Shown: positions 12,906-63,749 of the stretch, one piece after another
How positions within the stretch are numbered: position 1 is the stretch's first letter
Layout: every line of letters begins with the position of its first letter
DNA from: Bispira polyomma
Lineage: Eukaryota
Reading direction: 5' to 3'
Length of the DNA stretch: 64,000 nt
Assembly: GCA_965649765.1 (NCBI GenBank)
Contig: OZ287758.1
Span: forward strand, 3,348,001-3,412,000
Notes under the pieces: generated by a model
What the model was told of the DNA's origin: nothing
Seen by the model: the letters and a program-made list of their open reading frames with translations, nothing else
Database searches by the model: none
Made by a program: the position numbers and the translations under genes

Positions 12906-13510
12906 TTTTACATGTAAAATTAATATTTGCAGAAAGAACTACTTATTCAGGAAATATTTGCACAAGTTACAATTTTATTTGGATGAGAATTTGCTGTTCT
13001 GAATGTATATTTTATATATTTGAGTGTATATGCAACTTTGGGTGACTTTACCTCCATTTCTGCTTGGAAGTGTGGGTAATCTTTCTTAAAACTTTCGATT
13101 TATATAAAATATAAGCATTATGCAATGCTATTGTGTACAAAACCCGATTTTTAGAGTGGTAGAAGTTTGAATTCGAAGCTAATTCTTTAAGGTAACAAAT
13201 CCGTACTTTTTGCTTATTTTGCCGTGAATTTTTTATATTTTAGAACCTTTGGAGACTGTTTTTTTTTCATATATTTTGAACTATATCAGTTAATATAATG
13301 ATATTTTATCAGTGGATAATAAAAGGGCTTTTATTGTACTGTTGATCTATCTTCTTTGGTCATATAATTTTTTTAATATATACCACTCGGTCAATTTTCC
13401 TATTGTACATACATTTTGACATATGTATAGAAACGAGGGCATCAGAGTGAATAACGACTAATAATGACTAAAAACATGACCGATGTGTGTGTGTGTGTGC
13501 CTTTACTTAA

Positions 13511-13795
13511 CCCTTTCACCCCTAGGTTGTATGTTAGCATTCAACCGCAATTCTTACTCCCAGAACTGATGTCTGTCATCAAGCAGAGGACACCCAAAAA
13601 TGTATTCTATGTTATTCAACTTCAGTTCCTCACAATAGGATATATTATAAGTACAGCAGACTCCTTTGTTTAAAAACATTATGTGAATCCTTTACTGAAT
13701 GCAGGAAGTGGTCATGTTGTGTGAGCTTTAGTGATTCCAGCTATCTGTAGCCTGTCACCTGACACATTGTCTTCAGTTTGATAAGACTGAAGGGG
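13511..13795. mobile_element. piggyBac-like MITE
   Basis: TTAA|CCCTTTCA ... TGAAGGGG|TTAA. Confidence 0.55.
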
Positions 13796-14380
13796 TTAAA
13801 AGTCTGATCAAAGAGATTTGGTGAAAAGGACCCCTACACTCATTGACTTATATCTGTTTAGAACAATAATCTTTATTTCCTCATAAAATGCAAACATTAT
13901 TAATTCTGCTCACATTCGCAAGATAAAAAAAGAGACAAAAATTCTCTTGCCATCTAACCTCACAGGATCGTAACCTTAGACAAATATAGGGCCAGCCAAA
14001 GGTAGTCGCCAATTAATAAAAAATGTATGACATTAATAATTTCATTGTGTTAATAACATTCTTTAATATTTCAGATACCAACAGTAGGTAAATATCGCTT
14101 AGTTAACAAATATCTATGAGTCACTTTAAACTTGCAACAGCAATACATCAATAATTATACTAAGTAAGTCCAATTCACAGAAAGGCATAGTAAACCATTC
14201 CCCGTGTGTATATCTTATATCTGCCTAATACCTTGGCAGTGTAGCCTAAGACCATGTACATGACAAGGTAGATGCCCACTATGCAAGAAGGAGGAGGTAG
14301 GGGTCTACTGTACTGGGCTTTAAAATTTAAGTCCAGTGCACAGTGGTGGCCCAATGTGCAACAGAGGAGGAGGTGGGGGT

Positions 14381-14930
14381 CCACTGCCCAGCCTCAGTTC
14401 TCTTAAGTAAGGCTAGATCCCACTCTCCAGCTTCAGTTCTCTTAAGTAAGGCTAGAACCCACTCTCCAGCCTCAGTTCTCTTAAGTAAGGCTAGATCCCA
14501 CTCTCCAGCTTCAGTTCTCTTAAGTAAGGCTAGATCCCACTCTCCAGCCTCAGCTCTCTTAAGTAAGGCTAGAACCCACTCTCCAGCCTCAGTTCTCTTA
14601 AGTAAGGCTAGATCCCACTCTCCAGCCTCAGTTCTCTTAAGTAAGGCTAGATCCCATTCTCCAGCCTCAGTTCTCTTAAGTAAGGCTAGATACCACTCTC
14701 CAGCCTCAGTTCTCTTAAGTAAGGCTAGAACCCACTCTCCAGCCTCAGTTCTCTTAAGTAAGGCTAGATCCCACTCTCCAGCCTCAGTTCTCTTAAGTAA
14801 GGCTAGATCCCACTCTCCAGCCTCAGTTCTCTTAAGTAAGGGTAGAACCCACTCTCCAGCCTCAGTTCTCTTAAGTAAGGGTAGAACCCACTCTCCAGCC
14901 TCAGTTCTCTTAAGTAAGGGTAGATCCCCA
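14381..14930. repeat. 39-bp minisatellite, ~14 copies
   Basis: Unit CCCACTCTCCAGCCTCAGTTCTCTTAAGTAAGGCTAGA(T/A). Confidence 0.95.
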
Positions 14931-14991
14931 CTTAATAAGTTGTAATCACCAGATGATCTCATGATCACCACTTAATAAGTCATGATCACCA

Positions 14992-15098
14992 GGTCCCGTA
15001 TTCACGAAAGGACTTAGCCAGGTCTTAGGCTCAAATCTAGCACAAAAGTATAATGATTTAAGCCTAAGACTTGTATAAGTCCCTTCGTGAATACGACC
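14992..15098. mobile_element. Palindromic MITE (PIF/Harbinger-like), family also at 20808-20917 and 31610-31720
   Basis: Inverted repeats GTATTCAC...GTGAATAC and CTTAGGCT...AGCCTAAG. Confidence 0.6.
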
Positions 15099-15277
15099 NN
15101 NNNNNNNNNNNNNNNNNNNNNNNNNNNNNNNNNNNNNNNNNNNNNNNNNNNNNNNNNNNNNNNNNNNNNNNNNNNNNNNNNNNNNNNNNNNNNNNNNNNN
15201 NNNNNNNNNNNNNNNNNNNNNNNNNNNNNNNNNNNNNNNNNNNNNNNNNNNNNNNNNNNNNNNNNNNNNNNNNNNNN
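15099..15277. other. Assembly gap (N run)
   Basis: Run of N. Confidence 1.
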
Positions 15278-15987
15278 TCCGTAGTATGGTAATCACCACT
15301 TAATCAATGAAATATATATATACATTGATGTCCCAATAGGGGCTCCAAACAATTGATACTGTATTTTTTTTAATATATATAACTATTGAATGCATATCTA
15401 AAGTATATCAAATATTTCTTAAGAATCCTTAAACTATGTTTATTAAGACTGTCATTTAGCTTTGTCGTAAGTGATAGGGATTATGGTAACCATGCAGCAA
15501 TATATTAAGATTGACTGAATACTTGAATTTAGCTTTGAAAACTAAAAAAAAATGGATCCTGCGCCATCATAAAGCCAGTACGTAAGGAAGTGTTCAGTTT
15601 TCAGTACACCCAGGTACTTGCCAGTATAAAAAAACAAAAACACACACTTTAAATTGTGTGTTAAGACATGTAATATATTGATCCTCCTCGTTCCTGTTCG
15701 TTACAATATGTCTACTACCTGTGGTAAAATTACCTAAAAAAAAAAAGAAACATTTTAAAATTTAACTATATCATATAAAGTACAGAATACTTGATACTGC
15801 ACGTATATTGACAACCTCAATATAATTGACTTCCATTAAAAGTCATGGCTTGACAGTACACCTTTTTGTGGATACTAGTGTATGGTAATATTTGAATCTA
15901 GATCAGTTAATTAGCATTATCAAATTTAAGTACATGTGGACTGCAATTGCAACAGATTGATGCTTTGTTTGTAATTTAATTTTTGGT

Positions 15988-16026
15988 AAATGAAAGTGAA
16001 AGTAACTATAGGAGGTGTACTTCCCC
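15988..16026 (+). promoter_or_regulatory. ISRE/IRF-binding element plus adjacent NF-kB-like site
   Basis: AAATGAAAGTGAAAGTA (15988-16004) matches GAAANNGAAA with a third partial half-site; GGTGTACTTCCCC (16014-16026) is kB-like on the reverse strand. Confidence 0.55.
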
Positions 16027-16029
16027 GCC

Positions 16030-16183
16030 AGTTGTGTGAATCAGCCATATTGAGAAATATTTAGACGGAAATCTCATTTGGATAAAGATCCCAAAGACAC
16101 CGGAAAACGACTGTATTTAATATTTGTGAGGTTATATAGTACATATAGCTGGTCTCTCTGAATATATAATAACACGTGTCCAG
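16030..16183 (+). other. Probable non-coding first exon (5' UTR) of the CARD-kinase gene
   Basis: Ends in a consensus donor CAG|GTGAGT at 16184 and lies directly downstream of the ISRE/kB-like motifs; the start is approximate. Confidence 0.5.
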
Positions 16184-17542
16184 GTGAGTGACAAGTGCCA
16201 ACTATATCATTTGGACAGTTTTAATAACAGAGTTGTGTAGTATCATTATTTATTCTGTATACACAGACACAGATACACTTGATCAATATTTGGATGGCAT
16301 ATCGGGGTGGGCTTGCACTAGCCGTAATTAAGATACGTTTAGCGGGATCAGAGTGTTATTTTCACTATACAGTCCTATATCTTAAGCCCCAGTCCCACCG
16401 GATTTACGTTCGTCTATGTTAACTACGCAAGGTTGTCACAAATATTTGATGCAAAAGTCCACTCACAAGTCGATTGATATTTTTTTATTATGTCAAAGGT
16501 GTTAACTTACGGAGAGATCCACGTATTTGTACATCTATACCTGTAAAGACATTGACACGTTAAAGGCTGTAATGTTACGTTTAGCCATGTCATGTATTAC
16601 GTTATATGTGCGTTCTACGTAATCAGTCGGAAGGCTACACTTTTTACGTTGATATAGGTAATACTATGCCAATTTCGAACTATTCTTACGCTAACACTCG
16701 TTCAGCTATGTCATAAGGGCTGGGCTCACTACATTTATGTTAGCCAGAATTTAAATGATAGATTTATTATTTCATGTATAAAAATACAACTATAGACATG
16801 TAAATTTGTGATATTTCCGTCCAACTTATAAATCTTTAGTACAATCTGAAGGTAGGTTCTATGACTCGGAATATCAATTAGAGTCGGTCTGGATCCTGTA
16901 AAACGCCCAGTGGCCAAAAAGGCTTTGGCTTTCCCCCAATATTGCAATTGATTAAATAGCAGTATGTACATGAATACTTCACCTAAAATTTTCGTTTTGC
17001 TATCACAAGAAAGCAGTTTTCAAAGTTATAGTACCGACCCAATCTGAAGCCATTCTGGTGGATCATATTTTCAGGGAGTACTCCTTACTGAGAATTGTGG
17101 GCGTGGCTTATGTTAGTTACTACAGTAAGTACCCTCGGATTTTCTTCTATTGATTTTTCTCTTGAAGTCACTGAAATTGAAAAAAAATATTGGTTTAAAA
17201 TAGGTGTATCAAATATTTGTAACGTTTTTAAACATTTCAAATGTTTGCTTGTACCAAACAATGCACACATGTGCATGGATAATTGATAGTTGGATCATTT
17301 GTATGATTTATCAATCCAAATAAGGACAATAGACATGCCAATTATATTAACGGCAAAGCTCACGTAAAGAGTAAAGTTTTAGCATCGTGGAATCAAAAAA
17401 TCAATACTGTATGGCGTCTATCAAGTTCACCTCAGTCTGATGACGTAGTACAGGGTATATACCCTGGAACAGGGTGGCAGGGCGGCAACTTTATTAGGGT
17501 GCAACATGCAAAATTCAATTAAATAAATGGATGTATCTATCT

Positions 17543-17798
17543 GAGGGCCGCGGTGGCCTAGTGGTTAGCAAGCATTGCGCTTCACAATCACTGGTCTCTC
17601 ACCTCTGGGCGGCGTGAGTTCGAATCCTGTCGATGCCTATGTGGGAAAGGTGGTAGTTCCTTACTGTGGACCGCTGGTTTCTCTGCAGAACCTTGACCAA
17701 CTGTATGCAGTGTTTCCTCCAGCGTTTCCAACTACCCGTCCCAATATAACTTACTAAAAGGTACTAGAGTGGACGTTAAATATCCAAAATTCAAATTC
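17543..17798 (+). mobile_element. tRNA-derived SINE, full length
   Basis: A box TGGCCTAGTGG, B box GTTCGAATCC, TTCAAA-type tail, 12-bp TSD ATGTATCTATCT. Confidence 0.88.
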
Positions 17799-17834
17799 AT
17801 GTATCTATCTAAATACTTCCCCTAACTAAGGGAA

Positions 17835-18100
17835 GCCTAGCTCCATTCCAACTTCCATTCCAACCTCCAGTCCAGCTTGCCGCACCAGAGAGAAGTATAG
17901 CTCCATTCCAGCACCCATTTCAACCTCCAGTCCAGAATGCCACCCTGTACAGAAGTCTAGCTCCATTCCAACCTCCAGTCCAGCTTGCCGCCCTGTAGAG
18001 AGTATACCTTCATTCTAGCTTCCATTCCAACCTTCAGTCTAACCTGCTGCCCTAAACCGAAGCCTAGATCCATTCTAACTCCCACTCCAACCTCCAACCT
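17835..18100. repeat. Degenerate C-rich tandem repeat (AGCTCCATTCCAACCTCCAGTCCAG...)
   Basis: About 5 diverged units. Confidence 0.75.
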
Positions 18101-19087
18101 TTTTAAAAACCAGCATACCAACTTCAAATCTTTCTAACTTTAAAAGTATATAAGGACTTTCTTTGCTGGATTTTGCACTCAAAATGGCAATTATTCATAA
18201 ATAACTCAGAAATTGAAGATAAAATTTACATGAAAATAAGATGAGAAAGCGTATTTTATTGTGATTCCTGAGCTTTTTATTGCATTAAATCCGTTAAGAA
18301 GTGGCGAGATATTCAAGCTTAAATACAAGTATCCCTCTTTTGAAAAACAGGGCGGCAGTACAGGGCGGCAGTACAAGGCGGCATTCCATTCCATTATATT
18401 CCAAGGTATAGTATATATCATAGTACACATATTTCTTAGGGTTACTGAATATGGTATCAATTTTGGGCAGGGGGTTATCACAAGACTACAGGTTCATAAA
18501 AAAACCTGTGGTTATATCAATATTATATGAATATTAAATAACCCTATATACATTAAATAACAATATATATATATTGATTAAAATCCTACAATAACCCGAT
18601 GGGTCACATCCAGATTAAAGATACATGTTAAGAAATATATTTGGCCATACTGAAAATGACTTCCTCTGTGTATATTTCTTCCACTTACATTCCAAAGAGG
18701 GCTTATTTTGATGAGATAGTATACATACAATTGAGTGGCTTGGGGTTTTTGCGGGGTATTTTTTAAGAAGGCTAGCACAAAATATGTATGAAGAATGAAG
18801 GTCAAAATGGGGTCAAAAGTACATTGTTCCATTCAAAACTATCTATGTAGTCATCTTTCGTTTTTGGTATCCATACTGATGGAACTCCATACCTCAAGCA
18901 ACTCCATTGGCTTCCAATTCACTATCGAATCCTGCTGAAAAAACGTAACTACATTTAAAACTGTTGTCTCCCAACAGCCTCACTAATTTGCAACAAAACT
19001 CTCCTTCAGCAGCCTTAAAAGAGGAAAGAGACTCTCTGTTTCCTCTAAAAAAAAACCACCAAGAGGTATGGTGTATGTACTTTTCTT

Positions 19088-19254
19088 ATGTTAATGATAT
19101 GAATCTTCCCTTGTTCTGTACAAGGTATATCTGTACTTGTCTGATGTTAATGATATGAATCTTCCCTTGTTTTGTACATGCTATATATGTACTTGTCTGA
19201 TGTTAATGATATGAATCTTCCCTTGTTTTGTACATGCTATATATGTACTTGTCA
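19088..19254. repeat. 56-bp tandem repeat, 3 copies
   Basis: ATGTTAATGATATGAATCTTCCCTTGTT...GTACTTGTC. Confidence 0.9.
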
Positions 19255-19582
19255 GAATACATTCAGAGATATAGTAAAGTCATTTTAGTGAATATCTCAA
19301 GGGACCATGGGAAATACTCCACTCCACTGAAGCTTTTAAGAATTTCACTTAACAGGGTGAGTTTTTAAAAGAGAAGACTTTTTGTGGGGACTATCAAGTT
19401 TTTTTCTTTAGATACAAAGAGATATCGACTTCTCAAACGGTTACTAACATTGTGTTTGACTGAACAAAAATGTATATTTGGGGAGTGAAATTGTTACTAT
19501 AAAGTTAAAGTTGAAAATTTGGATAAAATGAAATTTGGATAATAGAGTTTCTCCACTGTTACTTTGTGTCTTAGATGCGAGA

Positions 19583-19780
19583 ATGGCAGATTACAGAGAA
19601 CCCCCTCATATCATCATCTTCAGGAGATGGTACAAACAGCTGATCCACTCCATCAATGTCCCAGGTGTCACTGCCTCCCTGATGTCTGCCAATTGTATGA
19701 CTGTCAGGGACTTGGAACGAATCAACATTAAGTGTGCGAACACAGGGCAGATTGCGGCGTCAGAGACACTAATGACAGAC
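19583..19780 (+). CDS. CARD-kinase coding exon 1 (N-terminal part of CARD)
   Basis: Acceptor tgtcttag at 19574, ATG in strong context (agaATGG), donor GAC|gtaagc at 19781, phase 0. Confidence 0.8.
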
Positions 19781-22700
19781 GTAAGCTACAATATTTGAGT
19801 TGTCTTCACCAGGGGTTTGAAGTGAGCGGGAAATACAGAATATGGCTAAATACTAGAAATCACTGGGAAACTAGACCGAATAATCTGTCCCTGTTTTGCG
19901 AGATTCCTTGCTGATATTTTGGACGGCTGAATCACGAAAAGGGACAGAACGGCTTGCATAAGGAAAACGTTGTAAATTTAGACAGACGTAACATGGCGTA
20001 CAGTGTTGTTTCAATGATTTTGGTTTAGTTTTTATTTTATATTAATTGATATGCACCATATTGGCATAAACTAATTGAAAATCGGCAACTATATCATATA
20101 TAAGGAATGAGGGGATGTATTTATTTTTACCAGATTCTATATATGCCGATTCTGATTCAACGTTTTGCTTATGGAGGCCACACTGTCCCTCGCCATGCCG
20201 TCAGTATATCAAAGTATCAGCGAGGGCAGAATACTCGGTCAACTGGGAAACATGAGTATATGAATCCACCGGCCAATTTCTTTTAGAATAAACATAGACA
20301 TCCGGCTTATATTTTTTGACTTTCATCAAAGGAAAATCAAAGACAAGACTAAAATATATTATGGAAACATTGTTAGATAAATACATTTTCATATTTTATA
20401 TACTACAAGTATCCTGTTGATTGGGCAAGGTTCATTGCAGGAATAACATCATTGGGCAAGATGTGAATATGCCATTGCATACTGATTATGACTCAGGCTA
20501 TGTCATAGGACACAGGATTCGTTCGGTTTTTGCTCTTTAGTAGATACCTCGTATCAATAATGCACATTAAAAAGATATAAAACAAACAGACTCTATTGGG
20601 TGAGCGTGAGCCATCCCATATTTGACCTGTGTTTTTGGCAAAACTGACAGGCTGCTGTGTTTAGCAGACGTTTGTCTGAACCACATAACAACGACTACAT
20701 AGAACTTGCAGAATCTTCAAACTGGCACAGTAGTTTTGTAGACCTTATTCAGTCATTGAGGAAAGGCATGTTTCATGCACGTTTTAAGAAGAAGGTACAG
20801 GTTGGCAGGTGTGGTATTCACAAAAGGGTCCAAGTCTAGAGCATTGTCCTAAATCAAGCACAAAACGATACCAGATCTATGACAGAGTCTTGGCTTAGCC
20901 CTTTTGTGAATACCACTCCATGCGTCTAACTGAAACAGTGTGTTTAGGCTCAGTCAAAGGTTGTCTAAGCAATATGTCTAATTGCAAATAACAGCAACAT
21001 CATATTTGGAATAATGTCTTAAAGCATTCACCTCGCTATATATCTATTCAAATAACAGTATATGTCTTGCTTTTATAGTTTAGAAGTTTTCGGGAATAGG
21101 TTACAGATACCTGGAGTTACTAAAACACACAACACAGAGGACTACTTGCAGCATTCAATAACAGCCTCATGTATCGTTTTTCATACAGGGCAGTTTGCTG
21201 TACTAACAATTTCCTATTGTGACGAACTAAAGGAGAATTAACTAATATTGTCGATTTCTTGTCTACAGACAGAGGTTCTGCAAGTACTAAATGCTGTTGA
21301 CGACCTGGGTCTTTATAGAGTTAACTTTTAAGTATTAAGCTACAACAGGCTACAAACTACATATGGCCATTGAGAAAAATTTGATATTTGTAATTGAGTT
21401 GGTGTGTATGATTCATTGACCTTGGACTTATTGATTGGTTGGGGTTTCCACACATTGTATAGGCAGTTTCACTGGTTGGGGAAAGCATTGCATACTAGTT
21501 GGTCAATATATTGCACTGCAAACTTTCCCACATAAAGTCGCAACTGATATTCAAACCCACATCATCAGAGGTGGGAGGCAATTGTGCGAATCATCACACC
21601 ACTGAGCCCCCCCCCCCCCCCCCCCCCCCCCCCTAGCGGACCCTGGAGTAGTGATCTGACTTAAAACATTTCACTGACTCATTGAGGCTGGTTCATGGTG
21701 TTTTGGTTGAGAAGTTGTCGACTGATTCAGACACTTTTTGTAAACCAAGTGTACTCTGTGTAAGTGGAGAAATACTGACCCATTGTAGGTGATGCTGAGG
21801 AATCCTGACCCAGACTGCTTTAAGCATTTTACAGAGGCCTTGGAGTCATCAAATCACCAATATGTAGCTGAGCAGATGAGGTCAGAATACCAGCAATATC
21901 TAGGTTAGTACCGAATGCAGTCCACCTCTTCTAAACTTGTAGAGTTCGGATTTTAGAATGTATTCTTCATCCAATTTGTGCTGCCGAGCTGGTAGAAATT
22001 ATCTTTTGTTAGCTTTCTGTACTTTTTCTGTGGTATGGTGTAGACGTTCAAAGTTAACTTTGATGGTTCTAGGTCACAGGACAGGATAATCACATAGTGC
22101 AGGACAGTCGATACCAGGGAGATGAGCTCATGAAAATAACAGAAAATTAAAATTTAAAGTCACAGGACAACCAAGTTATAATTTAAAATAAAGTTATGTC
22201 CACCCAGTATTTCTTGAAATATTATTTTACCGACGATTGCGTCTGTCTTCCGTTATCTGGCATTTTAGCAACATCCCCAAGAATCTTTAGTCTGCCACTG
22301 GGGATAGTACCTCGTGACAGACGACCGCAATTTTAAGTGGTCATCCAAGCAAGTTGGTGAATGCCTGTACACATTTTGCTCAAGGATGTTATCCCACCAA
22401 ATGAAACTAGCGGGACCAAGTTTCCCGAGTGAAACCCGGGACCTTCTGATCATCGAACTAACTCCCTAACCACCAGGCCACGGGGACCACATGTATTCTC
22501 TGGAAAACTGATTTTTGTAACAATACGGTACATTTGAAAATATGGAGCATTTTGTGGGTTTTTAGTTTGTCATTCAGTCAACAGAGTAATCTGTGAGACT
22601 ACTGGTACCAGTGCTGTTATATTCTGTATTCATGGTGTCTCGATACGGAGGACAAATCAAGTGTAGTTTGCTGATTTAATGTTACATCACATAGATAATG

Positions 22701-25700
22701 CATTTCACCAGTCAAGTTCCTTGGTATATAGCCGCTGGTATTTCTTGGTTTCAGTAACAATTTTGGCATGGCTTTCTAAGCAGTGTACTAAACATCAGAC
22801 GGAAACGGTTATTCAGATTTTACTATCACGGAATGTTAGTTTTTTAAAACATTGTTCCCCCGGACTATTTTTCGTCATTAAATGGCTATATCTCAGTCAA
22901 TATTTAACCAATAATTTTCATTTTTATATCACTAAAAATGACATCTTATTTCCTTTCGGACAGTTTTAACTGTTTTGAATTCAAAATAAATTATGTAGAA
23001 GACATCTATTGAAATTGAACTAAAGATCAATATTAAATTTATAACTTGTATTCCTTGTTATTCAACTGGCTATGGTATTTATGTATGACTTAATGATCTT
23101 AGTGGTAACGTTCAAGGTCATTGATGAGAAGGAAGCTGATGTTATGCCTAGGCATTTAGATCTTGCCTGACTGTTTTTACTAAACTAAACTTCAACTGAA
23201 TATGGACTGAGATATTTGAAGAGAAAGTTCACATGCATTCAAAATTATATAAAAAGGCTCAAATGTACAGTGTTTAACTTTTGATCTCTGTGTGATTCTC
23301 GAAGCCTCCAAAGTTATAGTTGTGATCATTCAGGAAGGATCACTTGTACAAGTTGAAAACTACTGAAACTGTTGATTAAATTGAGTTCTAGAGTTTGAGG
23401 AAAGATTTGCTATTGCTGTACATGTATTTACAGACTATGAAACTAAAATGGCTCAAGGGCCTGCTACTGGACTGGTAAGTAACAGCCTAATGTGTAGTAA
23501 CAATGGGTAGTAACTGTTTCCTGTAGTGAGAAACTGAAGGATATTCTGAAAAAAATAAACTAATGTTTTTGAGGCTTCAACTGCTTGCCGTCAAACACAG
23601 GTTTTGGGAGTAACTAATGCTGTCGACTGCTTGTCAAACACATGGGCGCACTATTGGTATTACAAAGGGCCATGGGCACCATTGGTATTATAAAGGGCAA
23701 TAAGTACCATTGGTATTATAAATGGCCATGGGTACCATTGGTATTATAAAGGGTCATAAGTACCACTGGTAATATAAAGGGTCATGAGTACCATTGTTAT
23801 TATAAAAAGCCATGGGTACCATTGGTATTATAAAGGGTCATAAATACCAGACATGGGGCGAATACATGTGAAAAGTATTCGAATACGAATACTTTCTAAT
23901 TTTACGAATATGAATGCAGATATGAATACACAGATTTCGAAAGTATTCAAATACGAATGCGAATACATTTGCAATGTATTCATGAATGCATTCATGAATA
24001 CTTTAACTTCAAAGAAGGTTTAATTTACTCTGTTTTAAATTATAAGTATAGTATTATTAAAGTAAAATTTAGTGTCTTCAAAACATTTACTCAAAATAAC
24101 CTTTGACATTAATTTGCATTTACTTTAACACTAACAACAATTTACAGAACAACAATTTATGTATCTAAATTGAAATTAGTTTAACCTACTAAGGACCTAT
24201 TGATAAAACAAAGGCTTTTGATAAATTTATAACTTATTTGATATCATAATTTAGCTTTTATTTAATATACTTTGAACTGCACTGAAAAATGAAAAAAAAA
24301 AATGATAAAAAGGTTTGCATAATCCTGATAATAAATAATAGCTTCATACACTTGTATTCAATAGTTATGTATTATTTAATACACAAAGTTTTTCCTTTAC
24401 AAAAGGTAAAGTAAGGTGAAGTAAATACCATAGCACAGGTCTATCATTGAATGTTTTTCTCTAAATATAGTAAATATGGTAAATATTACTCTTAACTGCA
24501 TTCATAAACATTAAGCCCTCAAATACAGGAAATAGTGACACTAGCCACACAAATGTTTGAGTAGAGGCCCTTCTATTCAGTGGTCTGCCACCTATTGTTT
24601 ATGTACTCTTTATACTCTTTATTATGCACACTGATTAAACCTTTCATTTACTAGACAAATTTTAAAATCTTTGGGTTTGATAATGATTGTGATGATTTGA
24701 TTTTAACCAAGAAAAAGCATTATTTATTTTCTATTGTATTGATTCTCTCAGTTGTATATGTCCATACACTCCACTTGCTAGGATTTTAATATTTTTAATG
24801 TAAAATTTTAACTGGTTCATGTGATATATACTACATTATTTACCAGACCAGATTACATCTTGCTGGTTTTATTTTATTTATTTTGCCAAAAATAGAAATG
24901 TATTCGAATACGAATGCTTTAAAAAATGTATTCGAATACATATGCAGAATACAAATACCCTATGCCTGATAAGTACCATTGGTATTATAAAGGGCCATGG
25001 GTACCATTGAGTATTACAAAGGGCCATGAGTACCATTGTGTATTACAAAGGGCCATGAGTACCATTGAGTATTACAAAGGGCCACGAGTACCATTGGTAT
25101 TATAAAAGGCCATGGGTACCATTGGTATTATAAAGGGCCATGGGTACCATTGGTATTATAAAGGGTCATAAGTACCATTGGTATTATAAAGGACCATGGG
25201 TACCATTGAGTATTACAAAGGGCCATGAGTACCATTGGTATGATAAAGGGCCATGGTGGCCTAGTGGTTATAAGCATCTCCTTTAAAATTACTGGCTTCT
25301 CACCTCTGGGAATCGAATCCCGCAGATTCCTTCGTCATAGAAGTAAGTTGTCAGACATACATGTTGTGGGTCGATGGTTTACAGTGCACCGATTTCACCC
25401 ACCACTAAACCGGGCCGTCCCAATAAGGCCAAAGCTGTTGAAAAAGTGGCGTAAAACCCTGCAGAACCTCTACTAACTCAACAAATTTGGTTCTTTTTCA
25501 ACCTTTGATCAAATAGAAAAGAGCATTTCTGTATAAAAACGAGATACATATGGGAGAGTGGCAATGAATTCATCCAATCAAATGTTTGCACAAAAAAAGA
25601 TTGGATAATAGTGGTTCTAATGTGTTTAGATTTGCCTTGTATTAATTGCACACCATCTGCTGTCTGAATTTTGTATCCACTGACAATGCTGTTGACCTAG

Positions 25701-27266
25701 GTTTGTGGGTATGCATTTGCTTATCCATAGATGTCAACAGCTTCTTCTCTATAACTATAGTTGCTATTAACTGTTTGATATTTTATTACAGGTACCTCAG
25801 GTTTCTAAATATCAGTGGATCCAAACCTTTTTTTTCTATCTTTCAGAAACAACACAATCTTCCTTCTCCAAAAACAATGCCAGAATCAGTCCCCAAGTTT
25901 GCACACATATACCTTATCGCAGACAATATTTTCTGTTCTAAAGACCCCCCATAAATAATTATAGCCCCAAATCGCCCCCCACCCACCCATCGCCCTCCGC
26001 TTGTCAAGTGCTCAGGATTATTTTACATCACCAAACAACAATATCTTTACTACAATAAAACAGCATGGAAAATTGTTATTAATCTCACTTTCAAGCATTG
26101 TTGGTAATGTGAATAGTGACCTGTATTTAATTAATTTATGATAAGATGAAGAAACAGAATGCCTATACAGTTTATTCACCCTATTTATTCTTTAAAAGCA
26201 TGCAGACAATTCTGTAGATAATTTAATTTTTTCATACCAGGGAGCCGTAGGAACAAGGACAGCATGGACAAACATGGAGCAAGATCAAAGGCAAATACTG
26301 TATCCACCAGATGAACAACTATTTCCTGATGCTGCAATCACTAAATGTATACCGTTTGTTAAAGTAGCCGACCTGAAGATGGACTTCAACGATAGGCTGA
26401 TGAGAGGAAGCTATGGCACGGTTATTCGTGGTACGTTGAATGGCACCAGTGTGGCGGTAAAAGAAGTGAAGGTGAATGCTATTAAACGTACCAAAACGAA
26501 GACGTGGACAGAATTGTACGAGGAACAGGTGAATCGGGAATTCCACGTTAGTGCCTTTGTTCGCCATATGAATGTGGCTTTCCTACTGGCATACGCACTA
26601 CAGAATGATACACTGTTCTTGGTCTATGAGCTCATAGACGGACACACCATGGAGCAGGTAATCCTCGATCCTCAGGTACAACCTATGTACCACTTGGACA
26701 AGAAGGAGAAGCTCTTCTTGACCACACAGATTGCCCAAGCTCTGGCTTTCTTACACCACTGCAATCCGAGGGTCGTCCATGGGGATATCAATCCTGCCAA
26801 CATCATGGTCACCAGAGACAAGAACCTGGCAATGCTATTCGATCTGGGAGTCAACAAACTAAAGGAGAGGAATGCCGTCACAACAACGGGAGGGAACCTG
26901 TCACCCGGCACACCCATGTATATGGCCAGGGAACAGCTGCTTGAGAATATGAAATCAACAACATGCACAGACATCTGGTCCATGGGGGCATCGCTGTACG
27001 AGATCTTCTTTGAAGAGGACGTCTGGGAGGTTGATGGGGGCGACACCATGAAGGGTATCAAGAAACTGCTCCTGGCCAATGAAAGACCTAAACTGATAAA
27101 GGCCCCCAAGGAAGGGTGCCACAATCTAGCCCGGCTTATTGACAAGTGCATGCAGACTTTGGACACAAGTCGCCCACCTGCCTTAGAAGTGCTGAAGGAG
27201 TTATGGTTCATAGAAAAGACGTATGACGATGCTCAGAAACAAAAGAATGCAGACTACAAGCCTTAG
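19583..27266 (+). CDS. Spliced CARD(-like death-fold)-kinase, ~459 aa; coding exons 19583-19780, 21789-21903, 23434-23474, 26241-27266
   Basis: All junctions are GT-AG and phase-compatible (0,1,0). The joined N-terminus MADYREPPHIIIFRRWYKQLIHSINVPGVTASLMSANCMTVRDLERINIKCANTGQIAASETLMTD|VMLRNPDPDCFKHFTEALESSNHQYVAEQM follows the CARD helix pattern. Linker DYETKMAQGPATGL|GAVGTRTAWTN reads in frame into the 330-aa kinase ORF. Confidence 0.8.
21789..21903 (+). CDS. CARD-kinase coding exon 2 (C-terminal helices of CARD)
   Basis: ttgtag|GTG acceptor; VMLRNPDPDCFKHFTEALESSNHQYVAEQMRSEYQQYL resembles the CARD C-terminal motif (RGPxAFxxFxxALxxxxQxxLA); donor G|gttagt. Confidence 0.8.
22265..22490 (-). 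mobile_element. Diverged tRNA-SINE
   Basis: Minus-strand head GGTCCCCGTGGCCTGGTGGTTAG with a degenerate B box. Confidence 0.45.
23434..23474 (+). CDS. CARD-kinase linker mini-exon
   Basis: ttacag acceptor, gtaagt donor; 41 nt converts phase 1 to phase 0, exactly as needed to join the kinase exon. Confidence 0.7.
23641..25254. repeat. 28-29-bp minisatellite (CCATGGGTACCATTGGTATTATAAAGGG) split by the hAT MITE
   Basis: Arrays at 23641-23847 and 24969-25254. Confidence 0.9.
23848..24968. mobile_element. hAT-like MITE inserted into a minisatellite
   Basis: TIR CAG(A/G)CAT(G/A)GGG, 8-bp TSD ATAA(A/G)TAC, subterminal GTATTCGAATAC palindromes; related fragment at ~32080-32221. Confidence 0.75.
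25248..25480 (+). mobile_element. Diverged tRNA-SINE
   Basis: GGCCATGGTGGCCTAGTGGTT head, CTCACCTCTGGG, ATCGAATCCC B-box variant. Confidence 0.6.
26241..27266 (+). CDS. Protein kinase domain exon (TKL-like Ser/Thr kinase, atypical motifs)
   Basis: Motifs MRGSYGTV (G-loop), VAVK, HGDINPAN, DLG, GTPMYMARE, DIWSMG, RP; acceptor ttttttcataccag at 26240. Confidence 0.92.
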   Translation, partial: GAVGTRTAWTNMEQDQRQILYPPDEQLFPDAAITKCIPFVKVADLKMDFNDRLMRGSYGTVIRGTLNGTSVAVKEVKVNAIKRTKTKTWTELYEEQVNREFHVSAFVRHMNVAFLLAYALQNDTLFLVYELIDGHTMEQVILDPQVQPMYHLDKKEKLFLTTQIAQALAFLHHCNPRVVHGDINPANIMVTRDKNLAMLFDLGVNKLKERNAVTTTGGNLSPGTPMYMAREQLLENMKSTTCTDIWSMGASLYEIFFEEDVWEVDGGDTMKGIKKLLLANERPKLIKAPKEGCHNLARLIDKCMQTLDTSRPPALEVLKELWFIEKTYDDAQKQKNADYKP

Positions 27267-31221: not shown

Positions 31222-31412
31222 TCAGGAATCTGCAAATGTCTTGTTGAACTCATCTTGGTTTTCAAACGCTGCACGAATGAATTGAGCAAACAATCGGTCC
31301 ACATAGCTGGTGTGTCTCGGAAATGTGCCCTCCAGAAATCCAATATGGCCGCCATACTGCGTCACTACAATAGAAGTATACTGGCTGCTCTCGATTTCCT
31401 TCAAGGGTAGAG
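31222..31412 (-). CDS. ABHD3: ABHD exon 10 (catalytic His, stop)
   Basis: LPLKEIESSQYTSIVVTQYGGHIGFLEGTFPRHTSYVDRLFAQFIRAAF...DS*. Confidence 0.92.
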
Positions 31413-34400
31413 CTACAAAAAATAAGACAGAAAGCATTTTTCTTTTAACACAGGCTGGATATATCATTGCTACAGTTAGTCAACAACGCCAAAATGTAGA
31501 GAGAATTAGAATTGTTTTTTTTTAAACAGAATGAATGCTTTGAAGAATTTCTCGTCTCTAATAATAGATTTGACTCGGCAATTCTCAGTATATTTCTTTA
31601 GAGGTTACTGGGTCTGTATTCACTGACGGACTAAGCCAAGCCTTAGGCTTAAATCTAGTATACACTTGTGTGCTAGATTTAAGCCTAAGACTTGGACAAG
31701 TCTCTCAGTAAATACGGGCACTGAGCTCCTCCTATCTTTATGACAAAGTTTACTAAAGGAGGAATTTATTGACAGATAATAGAACCTTAATCAAATCGAA
31801 GTAGATTAACAACAGGAACACAGTAGTACATTTAAAGGACAGTAAATTGAAGAGATAACCAAAGTTGTGAAAACAGAGTTTACATTGTATATCAATGGGA
31901 ACGTCACTGTGTCACCATTCACTCAATGGTGTGATAAATTACTGGTCCATTAGATTTTTAATATGAAATTAGAACTATTTCATTGTGATATTCAATAGAT
32001 TAATTATCACTTGACAAATTGCTGCTTTTATTTTACTTATAACAAGAAATATTGGAAATGTATCCATGAAAGTTCTTTATGAATACGTTTATATTTGCAA
32101 TGTATTCGAATACGAATGTAAGTACTTTGCCTCCAAAACAAAAGTATTTGAATACGAATACTTTAAAAATGTATTTGAATGCATTTGAATACGAATGGAC
32201 AATCTCAATACCTCATGTCTGCACTACACACTAAAGGATTAGAATTTACCTGGAGTTCGATGGTGGAAGAAAAACCCAAGTGCTGAAGACACTGTGTAAA
32301 CCACCCACCAAAAATTAAAATTTTGTGACCTGCATTTTTAGCTCTATTTAGCTCTATTTTCGTTCAATAAGAGGGAATAATAGTCAATAATTAACCCTAA
32401 TTCTATTGATTATAGTCAAATTCCTTTGAAGTAGAACACTGTTTACTAAATGTCACTGTTTTATGTAGAGAAAAATCACTGCCGTCCCACAGTGGCCTTT
32501 TTATTTTAAACATAAGTTCAAATTCCTTTTTTTCTTTTTTGTCCCTTTATGTTAGACTTAAATGGGGGTCTCCCGTATTGAGTAAAAATAAACAGTAGAA
32601 CCTCTATTATCTGAACATGTTGGGAGCACAAGATTTTGGCCTAAATCGGTCATTAAATTTTTCTTTTTTTTCCCTTTTATTAAATTGGTACGCCTGGGCG
32701 TACTGGCTTCTACACTAGCTACGCCCCTGTCAATAAAATCTAACTATTCGGACAATAGAGGTTCTACTGTGTAATCATTAAAGATAAGACTCTTACAATC
32801 ACCGGGAGCAAACGGGTCGTCATAGGCGTTGAGAGCCAGAAGTGGCGTCTGTATCTCGTGTACTTTGACGTGTAGACTCATGTCTTCATAGTACTCCCTC
32901 CAGGATGGGTAGCCAAATTGCTTGGCGATAAAACGGTCATCGAAATCCCTCACGCGCTGGCTCTGTGGGGAAAAACTAATATGGATGTAATTGAGAAATG
33001 TTACTCAATAAAACATGTCAGGTAACAAACTAATCTTGTCTACTAATGTGGCAACATAATTATTCTGTATACTGTATATGTAACTAACAAAACTTTTACC
33101 TATCCGTCAATTTTTATTACCAAAAACAACAGTGGGTTTGAGTGAATTTCTAAAGTTTATAAATTTGATACTTTGACACACCTCAGCTGATGTTAAAAAG
33201 AAGAAGTAGTAGACACCTAAATTCTTTCATGGAGAGTCAAATTAATTTGTACACACACTTTTTTTTGGTATGTATCTATGTAAGACCATGATAGTATTAA
33301 TACGCAATTCTAAAAATGTCAAAGCTTTGATAAGGAAGTACCTAGTTGCCGTGGCAACTTTCAGGCAATAATACGTAAATGGCAGAAATGCAAAAAAATT
33401 TTAAAAAAAGTGAGGGTTTGGGGAGAAAAGAATGTGTGTAAACATCCCTCACAAGAAAAATACAAAAGATTTGACCTTGTTAACTTGAATCAAGGTCAAA
33501 TGTCATTAATGATGGAAGGGATTGATGTTTACTTAATGCATCTGTAGTGTACTTTGTGCCCAGTGAATATAGTTATTTCAATAATGTGATTTTGCACTAA
33601 ATACAGCACAAATCTGGTAATTATTTTAAATTTGTCATGTAACTCGTGTTATAATCAAACTAACACATTTCAAAGCATGGTATACGGTAATTTTTACCAC
33701 TCTTGGAGCTTAGAAACACTCATACTTCACCTTTGTGTTAAATACAACTCTAAAGATGGTAAAATGGTGTTATTCCGAAAATAGACGCGACAACAGTCCT
33801 GCAGTAAAACGGTCATATACTTTTGAACCAATCAAAACAGCTAACACACATTAATTTTAGTTTGGGTTCAACATTGCTTTAAAATATGTCCGGTGTCGTA
33901 TCCTATGATGGACAGTTCACTGGTGGATAAAATTAGAGCATGGGCGAGTTGATTCAAGGTTTTACTGGTCTGCAAACCTCCATCCAGCCTTCAGCAAGTC
34001 AACTGTCAAAGTTACTGTCACATACAGGCCAGGGCCGAGATTCAGACCCAGACCTGGTATTCTTGCATGTATACTCAGCTCTGACTCATACTCAACTTAA
34101 ATCTGATTTTTAGAACTCGTAATACAGAAAATATATCTAAAATCTGACTTCATATTTGAATTCAGGGTTAAAAGCTCTATTACAATGAATGGTCACAAGT
34201 ACAGGTTATTTCTATGTAAAATGATTTCCACACGGCCTGTATTTGAGTTAAGTATGAGTTTAGGCTGAGTATACATTACAGTAGACGTTATAGTATACTG
34301 AGAACTGAGAATACGGGCCCAGAACTACAGAGGTGAGGGGCTAGTGCTACAAAAACAAACCGTTTTAAGGTTTATCGAATATTAAAATGAAACAAACGGA

Positions 34401-37400
34401 TGTATTACAATATGTTGTCTTAATAAAACTAAATTGCGACATACTGATATATCAATGTATTGCTACACCCTTAGTTAAAGTCAAACTCGCACAATAAACA
34501 AACCTCCATTAGGAATTCCCAGTCATAATCGTCTTCAAAGTGACCCCTGTATCTGAAAGTATAGCAAATCAAAAACAATACCTGCTTGTCCAATAAGTAT
34601 ATAACTGAGCAGTCTTATTGTACAAAATTGCGTCCAAATCTGAACACCTTTAAATATTGCCATTTACATCTTGTTATGGGCTCATTTTTGTTTTGTTTCA
34701 TTAATGCATCTGTAGTGTACTTCCTGCCTAGTGGATCTAGTGACTTCAATAATGTGATTTTGCACTAAATACAGCACAAATCTGGTAATTATTTTAAAGT
34801 TGTCCTGTAACTCCCGTTAGAATCAGAATAACACATTCCAAGGTATACTGTAAGTTTTACCACTCTTGGAGTTTTAAAACTCCTGTCGCGCTTTAGAAGA
34901 TGCTAGCATCAATAAAGCGTGTTAAACATTCATAATAACAATAAGAAGAATAAAACGGATGTGACAGGTGTCTTCCTGTTTACAGTTATGGCTGACATAC
35001 AGTTCTGTTGACATTCTATGCATTATCAAATAATTAGGCTGGGAACCAAACAGAACTAAACAAAACCAAAATACACAAAAAATTGCAACGGGAATTTTCT
35101 TTGGAAAATCTGGTTTTAACTAATATAAGGAATTATTGCAACACGACAAGTGGACTGAGTCTGAGTGAGCACTCACTTGGTCACCATAGCCTTGAGGTCA
35201 TTACACAGGTGACTGTTGAACAAGAAGTGGTTGATGGGTTCTTCCAGTGACTTGGACGTCTCAAAAGGGTTCCATGCAGTGGACATGGTAAAAGCAGCCA
35301 GCAGACCACTGTCTCTGCCCCGATGTGTCAGGTAATTGCTCAGAATGATCCTGCAACACAAGTTAAAACAAGAACAATCTCCAAAATCGTGTACAAAATA
35401 TTGGTAAATTTTTCTGGAGATCTTTTTTTTTTTCTTCAAATTTTGTAGATTCTCGCCTGAAAAAAATAAAATATTATGCCATACATGGAAATGAACGGGT
35501 CGCAATATTATTAGATAAAACCCCCCTACCCCTTGGAGCAAATGGTATGTGTACTGCAGTTTGCAGAGACAACGATCTACCATTCATTACAAGCGGCACT
35601 TTTCGATCTGAAACGATGTGACATGATGTTTGCTAGACAAACCGAGAATTGTCTGTTAAACTTTTGCTAAACCAACCCCAACCTAAATTAAATTTGCTAA
35701 ACCTAGTCCAGCCTAAATTATATAGTCAATCGCGCAATCATTACTTTTATCACTAGGATGAAACCTATTTTGTACCTATTTTTATTGCATTGTAATGTAC
35801 CTGCATACGTAAATATAGATATTAAAATTTGTTATTGATTTTTGAAATTTTTTTTAGAGATTTCTGTCTTTGCTTTTAATATTCTATGTAAACATTATAT
35901 TTACCGTGTTAGCTGAAGTTAAGGTCAAAATTTGCCAAATAATATTTTAAGTTAAACATAGGAATCTGTTGGACTACCTTTTGCAAAGGTTGTGGTAGTT
36001 TGTTTCAATTTTTAGTAGTCTCGGACTACTGGACTACTGCATATGTCGAGCCCTGTTAATTGTAAATAAATGCCTACCCTCCGAGTGAGACTCCTAGATT
36101 ACTGTATATGTCAAGCCCTGTTAACTGTAAATAGATGCCTACCCTCCGAGTGAGACTCCTGCCGCTATGACGGGGGCCTTGGGGTACTTCTGTGTGATGT
36201 GGCCAATCACAGCACGCAAGTCTTCAGTCTTGGTGGCGCAGTACGTTTTCGGGGTCTTGGGATAGAGAAAAAAAATAAGGAAAAGAAAGTTCCACACTAG
36301 AGATGAAACAAGAAATCCATTTACTTTTAAATCTAAGGGTTCAAATACTAGCTATAAAACTGACATCATATTTGAATTCAGTGCTAGAAGCATTATATTC
36401 AAATGACTAGTGACTGTTACAAGTAGAGAGAGTGAAAACAATAGTAAAACTGGATATATCAGACCACAATACTTTTAGTAGCAGCTGGACCAGCGGACCC
36501 TCTAGCTTTTTTAGAACTTCTCTGTAACTTACAACTTTGGGACTCGATTATGCATATTTTACTACTTATTGGCAGAATTTTAGGAAATGCACCCAAAGGC
36601 ACATTGTCGCCTAAGAAAAATACAACTAATAAATATATATGAAAACCCAACTTTATGGTATTTTACACCTACTTTTGTAAAGTTATATTGTAGGAAAAAC
36701 AACAGAAGAGTTTAGGTATGTGTCAGCACTTTATTTGGTTGGAATTAGTTTGAAGTGAGTGATTATCGATGCACTTCACACACTAAGACTTAAAGCTTTA
36801 AATGTTACTTCCATAGTCTTTATAAGTTAAGTTTCAGGTGGACTTCAAGTTTTCTTGGAGCATACTGGCCCAGAATACCAGAGTTACACCATTTTAAATA
36901 TGAGTTTGAGCATGTACCTTTAGTTCTGCACCTCCATTTCCTCTGTTGTTGAACACCACTGACCTAAAAATAGAAATAACCGGAAAAACGTAAAATGGAC
37001 GTTTTGAATATATGTGCGTATGTAAATAGCAATATAGGTCAGTACATATGGGTATGAATTCTTAGCCCTGGCAAGACTAGGTACTAGGCTAGTGGTATAT
37101 TTAAATCTATACATGGGTCAATGTTTATTCAGAGTGAAATAGTGAATCAACACCAAACTAGTGAACTGTCTGGTGTATATGCCTTGAGCTAATTACAAGG
37201 TGAACGTTTACACTTTTCCCGCAAAAATTGGCTGTCTATATAAACCCCAACATCTACACAATCTGGGAGTTAGTTTGCTGTGTGGCTTGTTGCGTTGAAT
37301 CTTAGGGAGGAAGACATATTGGAGGTCATATTGAAAACCACGTGGGGAGAAATTTTAAAACTACTGATTTTACACGAGCTCCAAACTGTGCTTTTCCGTC

Positions 37401-40400
37401 TGATTCAATGACAATGACTCGTAGTAAGAATAAAGTAACTGAAGACCAACCAGAAGAAGTAGAAGCGGGTGGTGCTACTGGAGGTCTTGAGACGCAGCTA
37501 GACGCTGTTCTGAATGGGTTGACTGCCGTGACCGCGAGGCTAGATGCACAGGACAAGAGGCTTAACGAACAAGAAGAAAAGCTCGTGTTGAAGGAAGTGT
37601 CGGGAGCCTTGCCGTCGGCCCAGAATTCACCTAAGGATGAAAGAAGTGAGCTACCATCCCTTGGACTACTGAAGACGGACTCCCGAATCCAAGCTGAAGT
37701 CGACAAGAGATTAAGAGCCTATCAACACACCTCTAGACTTGAGAACAAAGGTAATAGTTCAGACAAAGTTATTAAATCAGGACGATTCAGGGCTGGTTCA
37801 CATGTTATAAAATGTACCATCGCATGGCCTCAAGACTTTTGTAGTTTACCTTCTGGTAGCACTAAGCAGCCTACTTATGATGACCTAAGTGCCCCTCAGC
37901 TCTTTCAAGGCTTATTGTTTTCAATATTGGAGGAAACTAACGCTCAACGTAAACAAAACATGCTCGTTTATTACACGAATTTAATGCAGGACGACAGAGC
38001 TGTCTCTTCCAACCGCTAAAAAAGCACATGCTATAGTTTTGACGGAGATAGAGAAGGGAAAGATCAGTTGGGATCAAGTAGAGCTAATTGATAAGGTTAG
38101 GGCTAGAGCCACACAAAGATTGGCTACCCCCCAGACTTATGCCACAAAACAATCTGGTGGTACCAATGATAGTAGTAAAACAGAAATCTGTAGGTTTTTT
38201 AACAAAAACATGTGCAAGTTTCAGGCGGACCATGTTAAAGATGGTGTCATGTATAGTCATGCTTGTTCATTCTGCTTTAAAACAGTAGGAAGAAAGATTG
38301 AGCATAGGGCCATTAATTGCATGCGACAAAAGAAGGTAGTCACAGTGCAGACAAGCCCGCGCAACAGGTTTAATATTGTCACTCGGCCTACTTCTCAAAT
38401 AATGTCAAATAATGCATTTAACAGAACCCAGGCCATTAATGGTGTAACAGTTTATAGTGAAGTACTAAATGTAAATGTTGACGACTATGATAAAGTCATA
38501 TGTAGTGAAATGAACACATGTGATAAAAATCAACTAAGCGTTAATAAAATAGAACAAAATAGTATAAGTAGAAAATGTAGTAAACGACAGTATGTGAAAG
38601 GTAAAGTAACCTATATCAATACTAATGACCATACTATGTACAGTGCTGGCAGTAAATGTCATAATGTATTATGCAGCTGTTATACACAGCCACGTGGGAT
38701 CAATAATATTGCTCAAGTGGGGTGCAAACAGGGCGAATGTGGAATGTGTATGAATGTCGTTTGTAGCTGCTATGTGCAGCCACGTGCGTGGGGCAAATGC
38801 CACGTGGGGCACATGCAGGGCGCATGTAAAAATTGCATGTATGACAAGAGCACAAATAACCATGAAATACTTAGGCCTAATAATAATGTTTTGAGGACTC
38901 AGTGCGTCTGTAGAAATACAGAGGTCTCATACATGCTGTATAGAGACTTAACTGATGAAAAACACGTGTGTAGTCAAGACAATTATGACAGCACAAACAA
39001 AAGCAATAACATAGTTCATACAAGTATTGATATTTGCAAACATGATAACTCCAGCCAAAATGGCAATATTGAAACAGTAGTACATAATCACAATGAACAC
39101 GCCACAGCTTCATTTATCTATGATAATGATCAGGTTCACGTTGTTTCTAACACGGGGGTTTTGGCCATGTGTCGAAATGAATATATAGGTCATACACGTG
39201 TTAATATGGGTAATAATGCTAGCTCCAGCCAAAAGAGTAATATTGAAACAACAGTTGGAAATTACCAGGAACACGCTGGGGCTACATTCACCTATAATAC
39301 TGATCAAGTGCATATTGTTTCATATACTGGGGTTTTGTGTCAAAATAAATGTTCTGAGGAAACACAACAACAAAATTTCCTTATGACCAGTTTTAATGAA
39401 AGTGTTATAATGGGAAGTATACAACTTCCACAAACATGTAATAATACACGTAGCAACTATAATGCACTCGAGTATACTTCACTTACAGCTCAAACTACAA
39501 CGGGAAGTATAAAACTTCCACAGGGATGTAAAAATACACCTAGCGATTACAATGCACTCGTGTATACTTCATTTACAGCTCAAACCACAACGTGCACAAT
39601 GTCAGCACACGTTCACATTCAGGGCCACACGGCCTACAACTCTAGTAGTATAAGTAACAAAGTTTTTAGTCAGGAAACAAGTTTATTGGTGTATACCACT
39701 ACTCATAGTAATGTGGTTTGTACAGGAACAATTTTTAACACAACTGCTTTTAGTGATTGCACAGATCAACTTGATGGCAATGGTTTTAGTGGAATAAATA
39801 TGTGTAATGATACAAGTGCATTATGCACTTTAGGACAGGATTTTACGGGGAACATAAGGGACACATACAGTTATAATAATATATACTCGTACACAACACG
39901 TCCCTCTTCTGCTGAGCTGGAATTGCAAACCAGTGATATTACAAAAAAGTCAATGGAAGTTGCCATTATTAGCAGCAACCTTACAGTAAATCTCAACATG
40001 GAACATGTAAATAATATACAGAAAAAGGACACTGGTATTGGTTCCACTAGCAGTAATAGGGATGTTTCAGTGGTTTATGGTTTTAATTGGTTGCAAAAAC
40101 CTCATCACATAACGTGTTCTGAATATAACGTCCTACAGTATGACAATTTACAAGAGTGGGTTATCAAGGCTCATAATGCTGTTAAAAGTACAAATATACC
40201 AAACTATAAAGGGGCCAGATTGTTAGTCCCCTCACAATTAAAAATTCGGGAGTGGAGGTCGTTATTTAAAAATTATAAATATAACATAATTTGCGACTTT
40301 ATCGCGTATGGCTTTCCACTTGACATGGATTACAGCAGTTTTGTGTATAACACTCATATCACAAACCATAAATCTGCTTCCCTAGCAATAGAAGGGGTTG

Positions 40401-63620: not shown

Positions 63621-63749
63621 GAAAGATGATTGATCAACTGTGATCAAAACTTTAAAGAACCTCCTATATTTCATAAAATAATAAAAGTTTTGTAAATCTA
63701 TGAATAAAATATCAATCATGTGAAATATATTTTATTTTTACTCCTGCCT

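Follow-up and report, generated by a model that had tools for sequence, protein, structure and literature searches.

The locus considered here raises the question of whether a CARD-kinase gene of Bispira polyomma is controlled by the animal's own IRFs. The window, that is, the whole stretch of 64,000 nucleotides that was analysed (contig OZ287758.1), carries several promoter-like words upstream of this gene. The first-pass annotation had reported tandem GAAA, a kB-like word, TGAATCA and a CAG/GTGAGT donor, and direct reading of the sequence found all of them in place. The stretch is probably the proximal promoter and non-coding first exon of the CARD-kinase gene, with the tandem GAAA bound by an endogenous IRF. 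An ISRE at the likely start, kept in most copies of the gene, suggests that the gene is likely switched on by an interferon-like immune programme. The features under discussion are the following.

15988..16004, plus strand: ISRE/IRF-E-like element made up of two AANNGAAA sites that overlap; the core 12-mer occupies 15992-16003
16005..16013, plus strand: insert of about 9 bases unique to the window copy, between the ISRE and the core promoter; weak TATA-like word; a gap in the alignments of paralogues C12, C10a and C10b
16014..16026, plus strand: kB-like word GGTGTACTTCCCC; two mismatches to GGGRNWYYCC; probably chance
16028..16033, plus strand: initiator-like CCAGTT; CCAGT kept in C12, C10a, C10b and C7b; predicted start region 16030-16043
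16030..16183, plus strand: predicted non-coding exon 1, about 150 nt; 5' end predicted; donor kept in 5 of 7 copies
16037..16043, plus strand: AP-1-like TGAATCA, shared with C12 and C7b; C10a and C10b carry the perfect TGAGTCA
16184..19574, plus strand: predicted intron 1 of 3391 nt (paralogues: roughly 1.0 to 3.9 kb); contains repeats
19575..19780, plus strand: exon 2; main ATG at 19583; first four CARD helices; Pfam CARD_2 positions 10-58, E 2e-4, under the cut-off
21789..21903, plus strand: exon 3; remainder of the CARD; Pfam CARD_2 positions 65-92, E 0.056, under the cut-off; same exon and boundaries in paralogues
23434..23474, plus strand: predicted exon 4, encoding a short linker; the least certain of the exons, based on AG/GT ends and frame fit only
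26241..27266, plus strand: exon 5; entire kinase domain; Pfam Pkinase E 1.6e-35

The CARD-kinase gene and its product

Four coding exons with AG/GT ends are predicted to join into one open frame of 459 residues, with an N-terminal CARD followed by a kinase domain. Exons 2 and 3 match consecutive parts of CARD_2. The structure model of exon 2 has 4 helices only; in a structural search with this model, eight of the top nine VIA rows (Z 5.1-5.5) were CARD-bearing chains, and most Foldseek rows were also CARDs, yet at E values over 1. PDB sequence searches with the CARD exon returned no CARD match, and an Atlas search gave CARD clusters only at 0.83 and 0.79, which are leads only. Judged by profile order and structure model, the N-terminal domain is a CARD, though each exon's profile match lies under the cut-off.

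The kinase exon, whose model has a pLDDT of 77, is followed by ATTAAA at 27339. The VAIK Lys, helix-C Glu, catalytic Asp and DFG Asp are all present in the window copy. In this copy alone, compared with its paralogues, the catalytic-loop Lys is replaced by Asn and the first Gly of the glycine loop by Met, so its kinase activity is uncertain; these two changes may weaken the kinase, and a weakened kinase or a scaffold is a possible reading of the product. Against the paralogues, dS is 0.77-0.82 and dN/dS is 0.29-0.32, and by these ratios the kinase is under purifying selection. An out-of-frame ATG at 19575, the first base of exon 2 and 8 bases before the main ATG, opens an overlapping uORF of 22 codons (19575-19643) that could damp translation. 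Its context is weak, and it is absent in the six paralogues.

IRAK/Pelle kinases consist of an N-terminal death domain and a kinase. The predicted protein resembles them in having a death-fold domain first and the kinase last, but it carries a CARD instead of the death domain and the kinase motif ARE in place of APE. In a PDB sequence search, the kinase matched IRAK4 at E 1e-13, while plant CTR1, a bacterial-type kinase and Nek7 scored higher, at E 1e-16; thus, the search does not establish IRAK orthology. In PDB and sequence comparisons the kinase is equally distant from many kinases, and these comparisons place it in no named family. RIPK2 also combines CARD and kinase in one chain (PMC9573974); its identity with the present protein was rejected because RIPK2, as described there, has the kinase first and the CARD at its C-terminus, an order that is reversed here. 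The same source gives vertebrate RIPK2 as the only RIP kinase with a CARD.

Protein searches limited to 147-697 residues gave no annotated full-length CARD-kinase homologue, and the sole named animal match in them was an uncharacterized partial protein of Crassostrea angulata. In another assembly, a CARD-exon protein and a kinase-exon protein suggest that a second species shares this architecture, although they do not prove it. The literature covered, which lay mostly outside subscription journals and was judged mainly from listings, yielded no account of a CARD-first kinase.

The predicted first exon

Six close paralogues, each with both CARD exons and the kinase exon, occur in the genome (C12, C10a, C10b, C7a, C7b and C1; 70-78% at exon 2). 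They support the earlier prediction that a non-coding first exon ending at 16183 would feed the CARD exon at 19575. By direct reading, the donor is cut after 16183 and an AG acceptor stands before 19575. Only two perfect MAG/GTRAGT sites occur on the plus strand of the window, this donor being one of them. With its flanks it is kept in five of seven copies (window, C12, C10a, C10b and C1), 1.0 to 3.9 kb from the acceptor; alignment to the window copy revealed no such donor in C7a and C7b, both of which have insertions directly past the ISRE. The AG acceptor lies 8-9 bases 5' of the ATG in all seven copies, and its proximity to the ATG throughout implies that a further upstream exon is required. 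The exon 1 region contains no ATG in 154 nt, and its transcript would be spliced to 19575.

A reading in which 16030-16183 represents a decayed exon or an internal exon of the 5' UTR, and the true promoter lies further upstream or in intron 1, is highly improbable. Such a reading draws on C7a and C7b, in which the donor is missing, and on C1, which has neither the ISRE nor the initiator-like word; these losses suggest that some copies manage without this promoter or are silent. The alignments argue the other way: no acceptor is kept 5' of the donor, whereas the donor itself, the initiator-like word and roughly 350 bases of DNA further upstream all are. Just two further near-consensus donors occur in 13000-19600, each with a mismatch.

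Contigs of three public runs (two samples of one study) cover 15317-16409 and the kinase exon with no letter differences, and are possibly the assembly's own source. They include introns and exons alike, so they are silent on expression and splicing; among the 15 of 435 joints listed, none is exon-exon. A very high-copy short repeat lies in intron 1 at 17545-17750, and tandem arrays with units of 39, 56 and 28 bases were found at 14381-14928, at 19074-19253, and at 23653-23849 and 24972-25255, respectively.

Promoter words in the window

The word AAATGAAAGTGAAAGTA was read at 15988-16004. The consensus for IRF binding, by the element definition in PMC7819612, is AANNGAAA, and at 15988-16003 there are at least two GAAA cores with a 2-base spacer, arranged as AANNGAAA repeats in the manner of an ISRE or IRF-E. 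The 12-mer pattern GAAANYGAAASY has one match in the window, which is the core of this element, against an expectation of 0.54 per 64 kb. The shorter pattern GAAANNGAAA occurs 4 times (5.1 expected), a longer ISRE pattern with up to one mismatch occurs once (0.9 expected), TGAVTCA occurs 32 times (32 expected), and the kB consensus with up to two mismatches occurs 660 times (683 expected). None of the ISRE-like, kB-like and AP-1-like words exceeds shuffled sequence, so each alone is at chance level within the 64-kb window. The ISRE and the donor exceed chance because of their position and their retention in paralogues; the probability of an ISRE 12-mer falling within 200 bases of the exon-1 donor by chance is 0.002. 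Inducibility by virus or dsRNA, proposed earlier from these motifs, would have lent independent support to an immune role; without the paralogue comparison the motifs constitute no independent proof of that role.

The kB consensus is GGGRNWYYCC. The site at 16014-16026 needs both mismatches, and not one of the four paralogues in which the stretch is seen retains it, the CCCC run being absent from C12, C10a, C10b and C7b. The kB-like site named earlier was rejected as an NF-kB site on these grounds together with the 660 equal sites in the window; the kB-like word near the ISRE is probably due to chance, and NF-kB input to the CARD-kinase promoter is not supported.

The AP-1-like word is kept in five of the five copies in which the stretch is seen (window, C12, C10a, C10b and C7b), with one mismatch to the AP-1 consensus TGA(C/G)TCA in the window, C12 and C7b and none in C10a and C10b. 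At this promoter it would assist the IRF, or it could alternatively be part of the core promoter. The nearby CCAGT is likened to the initiator consensus. An IRF dimer, IRF1/2-like or IRF4/8-like, would sit on the two GAAA cores 25-40 bases 5' of a start near 16030-16043.

Retention of the ISRE across paralogues

The alignments show the ISRE-like element retained in most copies. It is intact at the homologous place in five of seven copies (window, C12, C10a, C10b and C7b), and the four paralogues among these differ from the window solely at the two spacer bases 15996-15997. C7a has a single core change, and in C1 the element has been removed by a deletion. The only core-changed ISRE thus sits in the copy whose first CARD exon is inverted and whose DLG Asp has become Asn. 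Two paralogues (C7:48.14-48.17 Mb and C7:45.03-45.05 Mb) appear to be decaying: the glycine loop carries a deletion, insertions follow the ISRE, and the exon-1 donor was not found; the former is the copy with the inverted CARD exon and the Asn. In C1, which has no ISRE, the kinase frame is still open.

In the element, 14 of 16 bases are kept across a dS of about 0.8 (fourfold identity 0.59), and both changes fall in the spacer, which would happen in 1 of 120 cases if changes were spread evenly. This retention is higher than the neutral rate (p 0.015) and not higher than the local promoter rate (p 0.15); it does not exceed the background because the whole promoter aligns well, the roughly 350 bases upstream of the donor having 72-75% identity over aligned positions versus 59-60% at fourfold sites. 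Several other promoter 17-mers are as well kept. Since the six paralogues form one clade, the window and its paralogues amount to one deep comparison; three paralogue sub-lineages, separated by dS of 0.25-0.33, share an identical ISRE. A genome DNA search with the promoter as query returned only the self-match, and the paralogous promoters are detectable only by local alignment.

From these figures it could be argued that the promoter and first exon are real and that the ISRE-like word is an A-rich passenger, without IRF use, in a generally conserved promoter. The expectation of 0.54 12-mers per 64 kb, the unremarkable 14 of 16 bases at the local identity, the equally kept 17-mers and the 12-mer matches at proteasome control loci (see below) all agree with a passenger. 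Its closeness to the donor, the restriction of changes to the spacer and the ISREs at two unrelated CARD-kinase promoters do not, and we consider a passenger quite improbable.

Distant CARD-kinases

Two distant CARD-kinases were found among 12 distant kinase loci (C10:22.27 and C10:22.24 Mb), and a third at C10:0.75 Mb. The gene at C10:22.27 Mb has an ISRE about 3.4 kb 5' of its CARD exon and, 82 bases past the ISRE, a donor-like site; that at C10:0.75 Mb has one about 0.43 kb 5' of its CARD exon. Neither promoter has DNA similarity to the window promoter; the joint probability of the two ISREs is about 0.004 in the stretches examined, which were chosen after the fact. Upstream of the gene at C10:22.24 Mb, where the DNA is an inverted duplication, no ISRE match was found. 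Over the 12 distant kinase loci, five ISRE 12-mers occur in 220 kb versus 1.9 expected (p 0.04; 5 of 12 loci), a weak excess for genes whose starts are not located.

The region C10:22.236-22.253 Mb (stretches L008, L017, L020 and L109) is a perfect inverted duplication of more than 3.1 kb with two head-to-head CARD-kinases, either real or an assembly artefact, and in the adjoining stretch (L012) a single exon holds two kinase domains. Related single-exon kinase domains lie 3' of Roc-like, ankyrin-repeat and HSP70-like frames (L101, L103, L112, L114 and L119), an arrangement that would make the kinase domain a shuffled module. A tandem array of about 17 kinase matches occupies C4:97.6-99.1 Mb.

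IRFs and immune-type genes in the genome

The premise that an invertebrate IRF and antiviral programme is available agrees with the gene content: the genome has 11 exon-level matches to the IRF family, five C-terminal domains of RIG-I-like receptors, and one viperin. One IRF has a recognition helix identical to that of IRF1 and IRF2, with the GAAA-contacting Arg, Cys, Asn and Ser that are named in PMC7819612; at the level of sequence, a cognate IRF with the GAAA-contacting residues is thus present. The named homologues of one genome IRF are mostly molluscan, which places the host among the lophotrochozoans. An intronless IRF4/8-like frame of 567 codons (L041:211-1914; C10, 9.32 Mb), with a 69% identical protein in another assembly, likely arose by retrocopying from the C4:65.1 Mb gene. 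Four RIG-I-like receptor genes are clustered at C5:81.3-81.65 Mb. A search of the genome for the interferon family gave no matches and its controls were likewise blank, so it is uninformative on absence.

The pattern GAAANYGAAASY was fixed before the immune regions were read and after the paralogues were seen. Eleven immune-type loci (viperin, four RIG-I-like CARD exons, five IRF loci and one distant CARD-kinase) contributed 190 kb of upstream DNA; C10:0.75 Mb is counted twice, among these loci and as a distant CARD-kinase. The pattern occurs 10 times in the 190 kb versus 1.6 expected from the genome rate, at 6 of 11 loci (p 0.0014), and at four of the five viperin and RIG-I-like loci (p 0.0025). 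The matches cluster at viperin, the starts of the immune-type genes are not located, and a fifth RIG-I-like gene has no located 5' end. In the proteasome-alpha control there are two matches in 120 kb, at 2 of 6 loci, and the immune loci do not differ significantly from this control (by hits, p 0.098; by loci, p 0.37). The enrichment, significant against the genome rate but not against the proteasome control, is suggestive. No match was found upstream of the IRF1/2-like gene (C6, 67.8 Mb), of one of the four RIG-I-like loci, or of four of the five IRF loci in all. Additional stretches held four matches in 70 kb, which were not counted because three of them lie within a stretch chosen for a known match; there were none at the IRF pair on C1 or in three of the stretches from the RIG-I-like cluster.

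Genome-wide, GAAANYGAAASY is not enriched (8732 versus 8774 for the reversed pattern). A looser ISRE 16-mer is rarer than its control (284 versus 620) and a tighter one is commoner (65 versus 35); no genome-wide enrichment is claimed, as the outcome depends on the pattern. Closely paired ISRE-like 16-mers at C1:60079111 and 60079202, C10:48205432 and 48205456, C2:66493224 and 66493377, and in L100 may mark the promoters of further IRF targets.

The presence of an ISRE suggests control by IRFs, and such control extends to basal, LPS-driven and haemocyte expression as well (PMC7819612, PMC13524488). The site could accordingly be a genuine IRF site that serves basal, haemocyte-lineage or bacterial (LPS) expression and not a response to virus or dsRNA. 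Constitutive defence genes are driven by IRF1 (PMC7819612), and oyster IRF1 and IRF8 act in the LPS response and haemocyte proliferation (PMC13524488). Against this stands the clustering of ISRE 12-mers at viperin and RIG-I-like genes, which are induced by dsRNA or virus in oyster (PMC5869526), and we regard the basal or LPS role as unlikely. Within it, the window copy may be a shared IRF/BLIMP1 site: it carries the form GTG-GAAAGT, which matches the overlapping BLIMP1/IRF probes and recalls the core of such sites in SP110 and BTN3A3 (PMC2938208). Where the window copy has GTG, the paralogues read ACG, a better match to IRF than to BLIMP1; thus, the overlap is not conserved.

With induction by dsRNA or infection as the favoured reading, expression of the CARD-kinase gene would increase alongside that of viperin and the RIG-I-like receptors, and the CARD would in turn bring the kinase to a CARD-bearing sensor or adaptor, by analogy with the role of the death domain in IRAK kinases.

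Comparison with known systems

Control through IRF and ISRE without interferon is described in shrimp, where IRF binds the ISRE in Vago4 (PMC4602278), and oyster IRFs activate ISRE reporters (PMC5557890, PMC5869526, PMC8218723, PMC13524488). Because this work has been published, the kind of regulation is already known; here a likely promoter of this kind sits on a CARD-first kinase architecture that the literature covered did not describe. The locus resembles shrimp Vago4 (PMC4602278) and oyster CgIFNLP (cited in PMC13524488): the host has IRFs, and tandem GAAA adjoins the start, here a predicted one, of a gene of immune type. It differs in its target, since Vago4 and CgIFNLP are secreted cytokine-like peptides, whereas the CARD-kinase is intracellular. 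Vertebrate ISG promoters bound by IRF1/IRF2 or ISGF3 (PMC7819612) are similar in having two AANNGAAA sites, with a host IRF of the same recognition helix; unlike in those promoters, induction here would be IRF-direct or through a non-interferon signal.

A broader model is that the lineage-expanded CARD-first kinases form an IRF-inducible arm of an interferon-like response. Three deeply diverged subfamilies would each have kept or independently gained an ISRE promoter, and the CARD would dock on RIG-I-like receptors or MAVS, with no vertebrate counterpart. This model is tentative and, on present evidence, doubtful. If the IRF-target reading of the window promoter holds, the CARD-first kinase becomes a candidate signalling step downstream of RIG-I-like receptors, and a scan for the 12-mer near gene starts would list the interferon-like regulon without RNA data. 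Endogenous IRF-target promoters of invertebrates are few in the literature as represented by the sources cited, most mollusc work there using mammalian ISRE reporters. The natural variants that differ in the spacer only, with the decayed copies as built-in negatives, form a ready reporter series.

Neighbouring features

The exons of an alpha/beta-hydrolase gene, which we take to be ABHD3-like, lie on the minus strand at 31222-48251 (PRK10985 hydrolase match, E 3e-7), convergent with the kinase gene. Inside this gene, reverse transcriptase and tyrosine-recombinase-like frames occur at 37306-43058, presumably belonging to a DIRS-type retrotransposon. A LINE-type element is located at 60926-63643.
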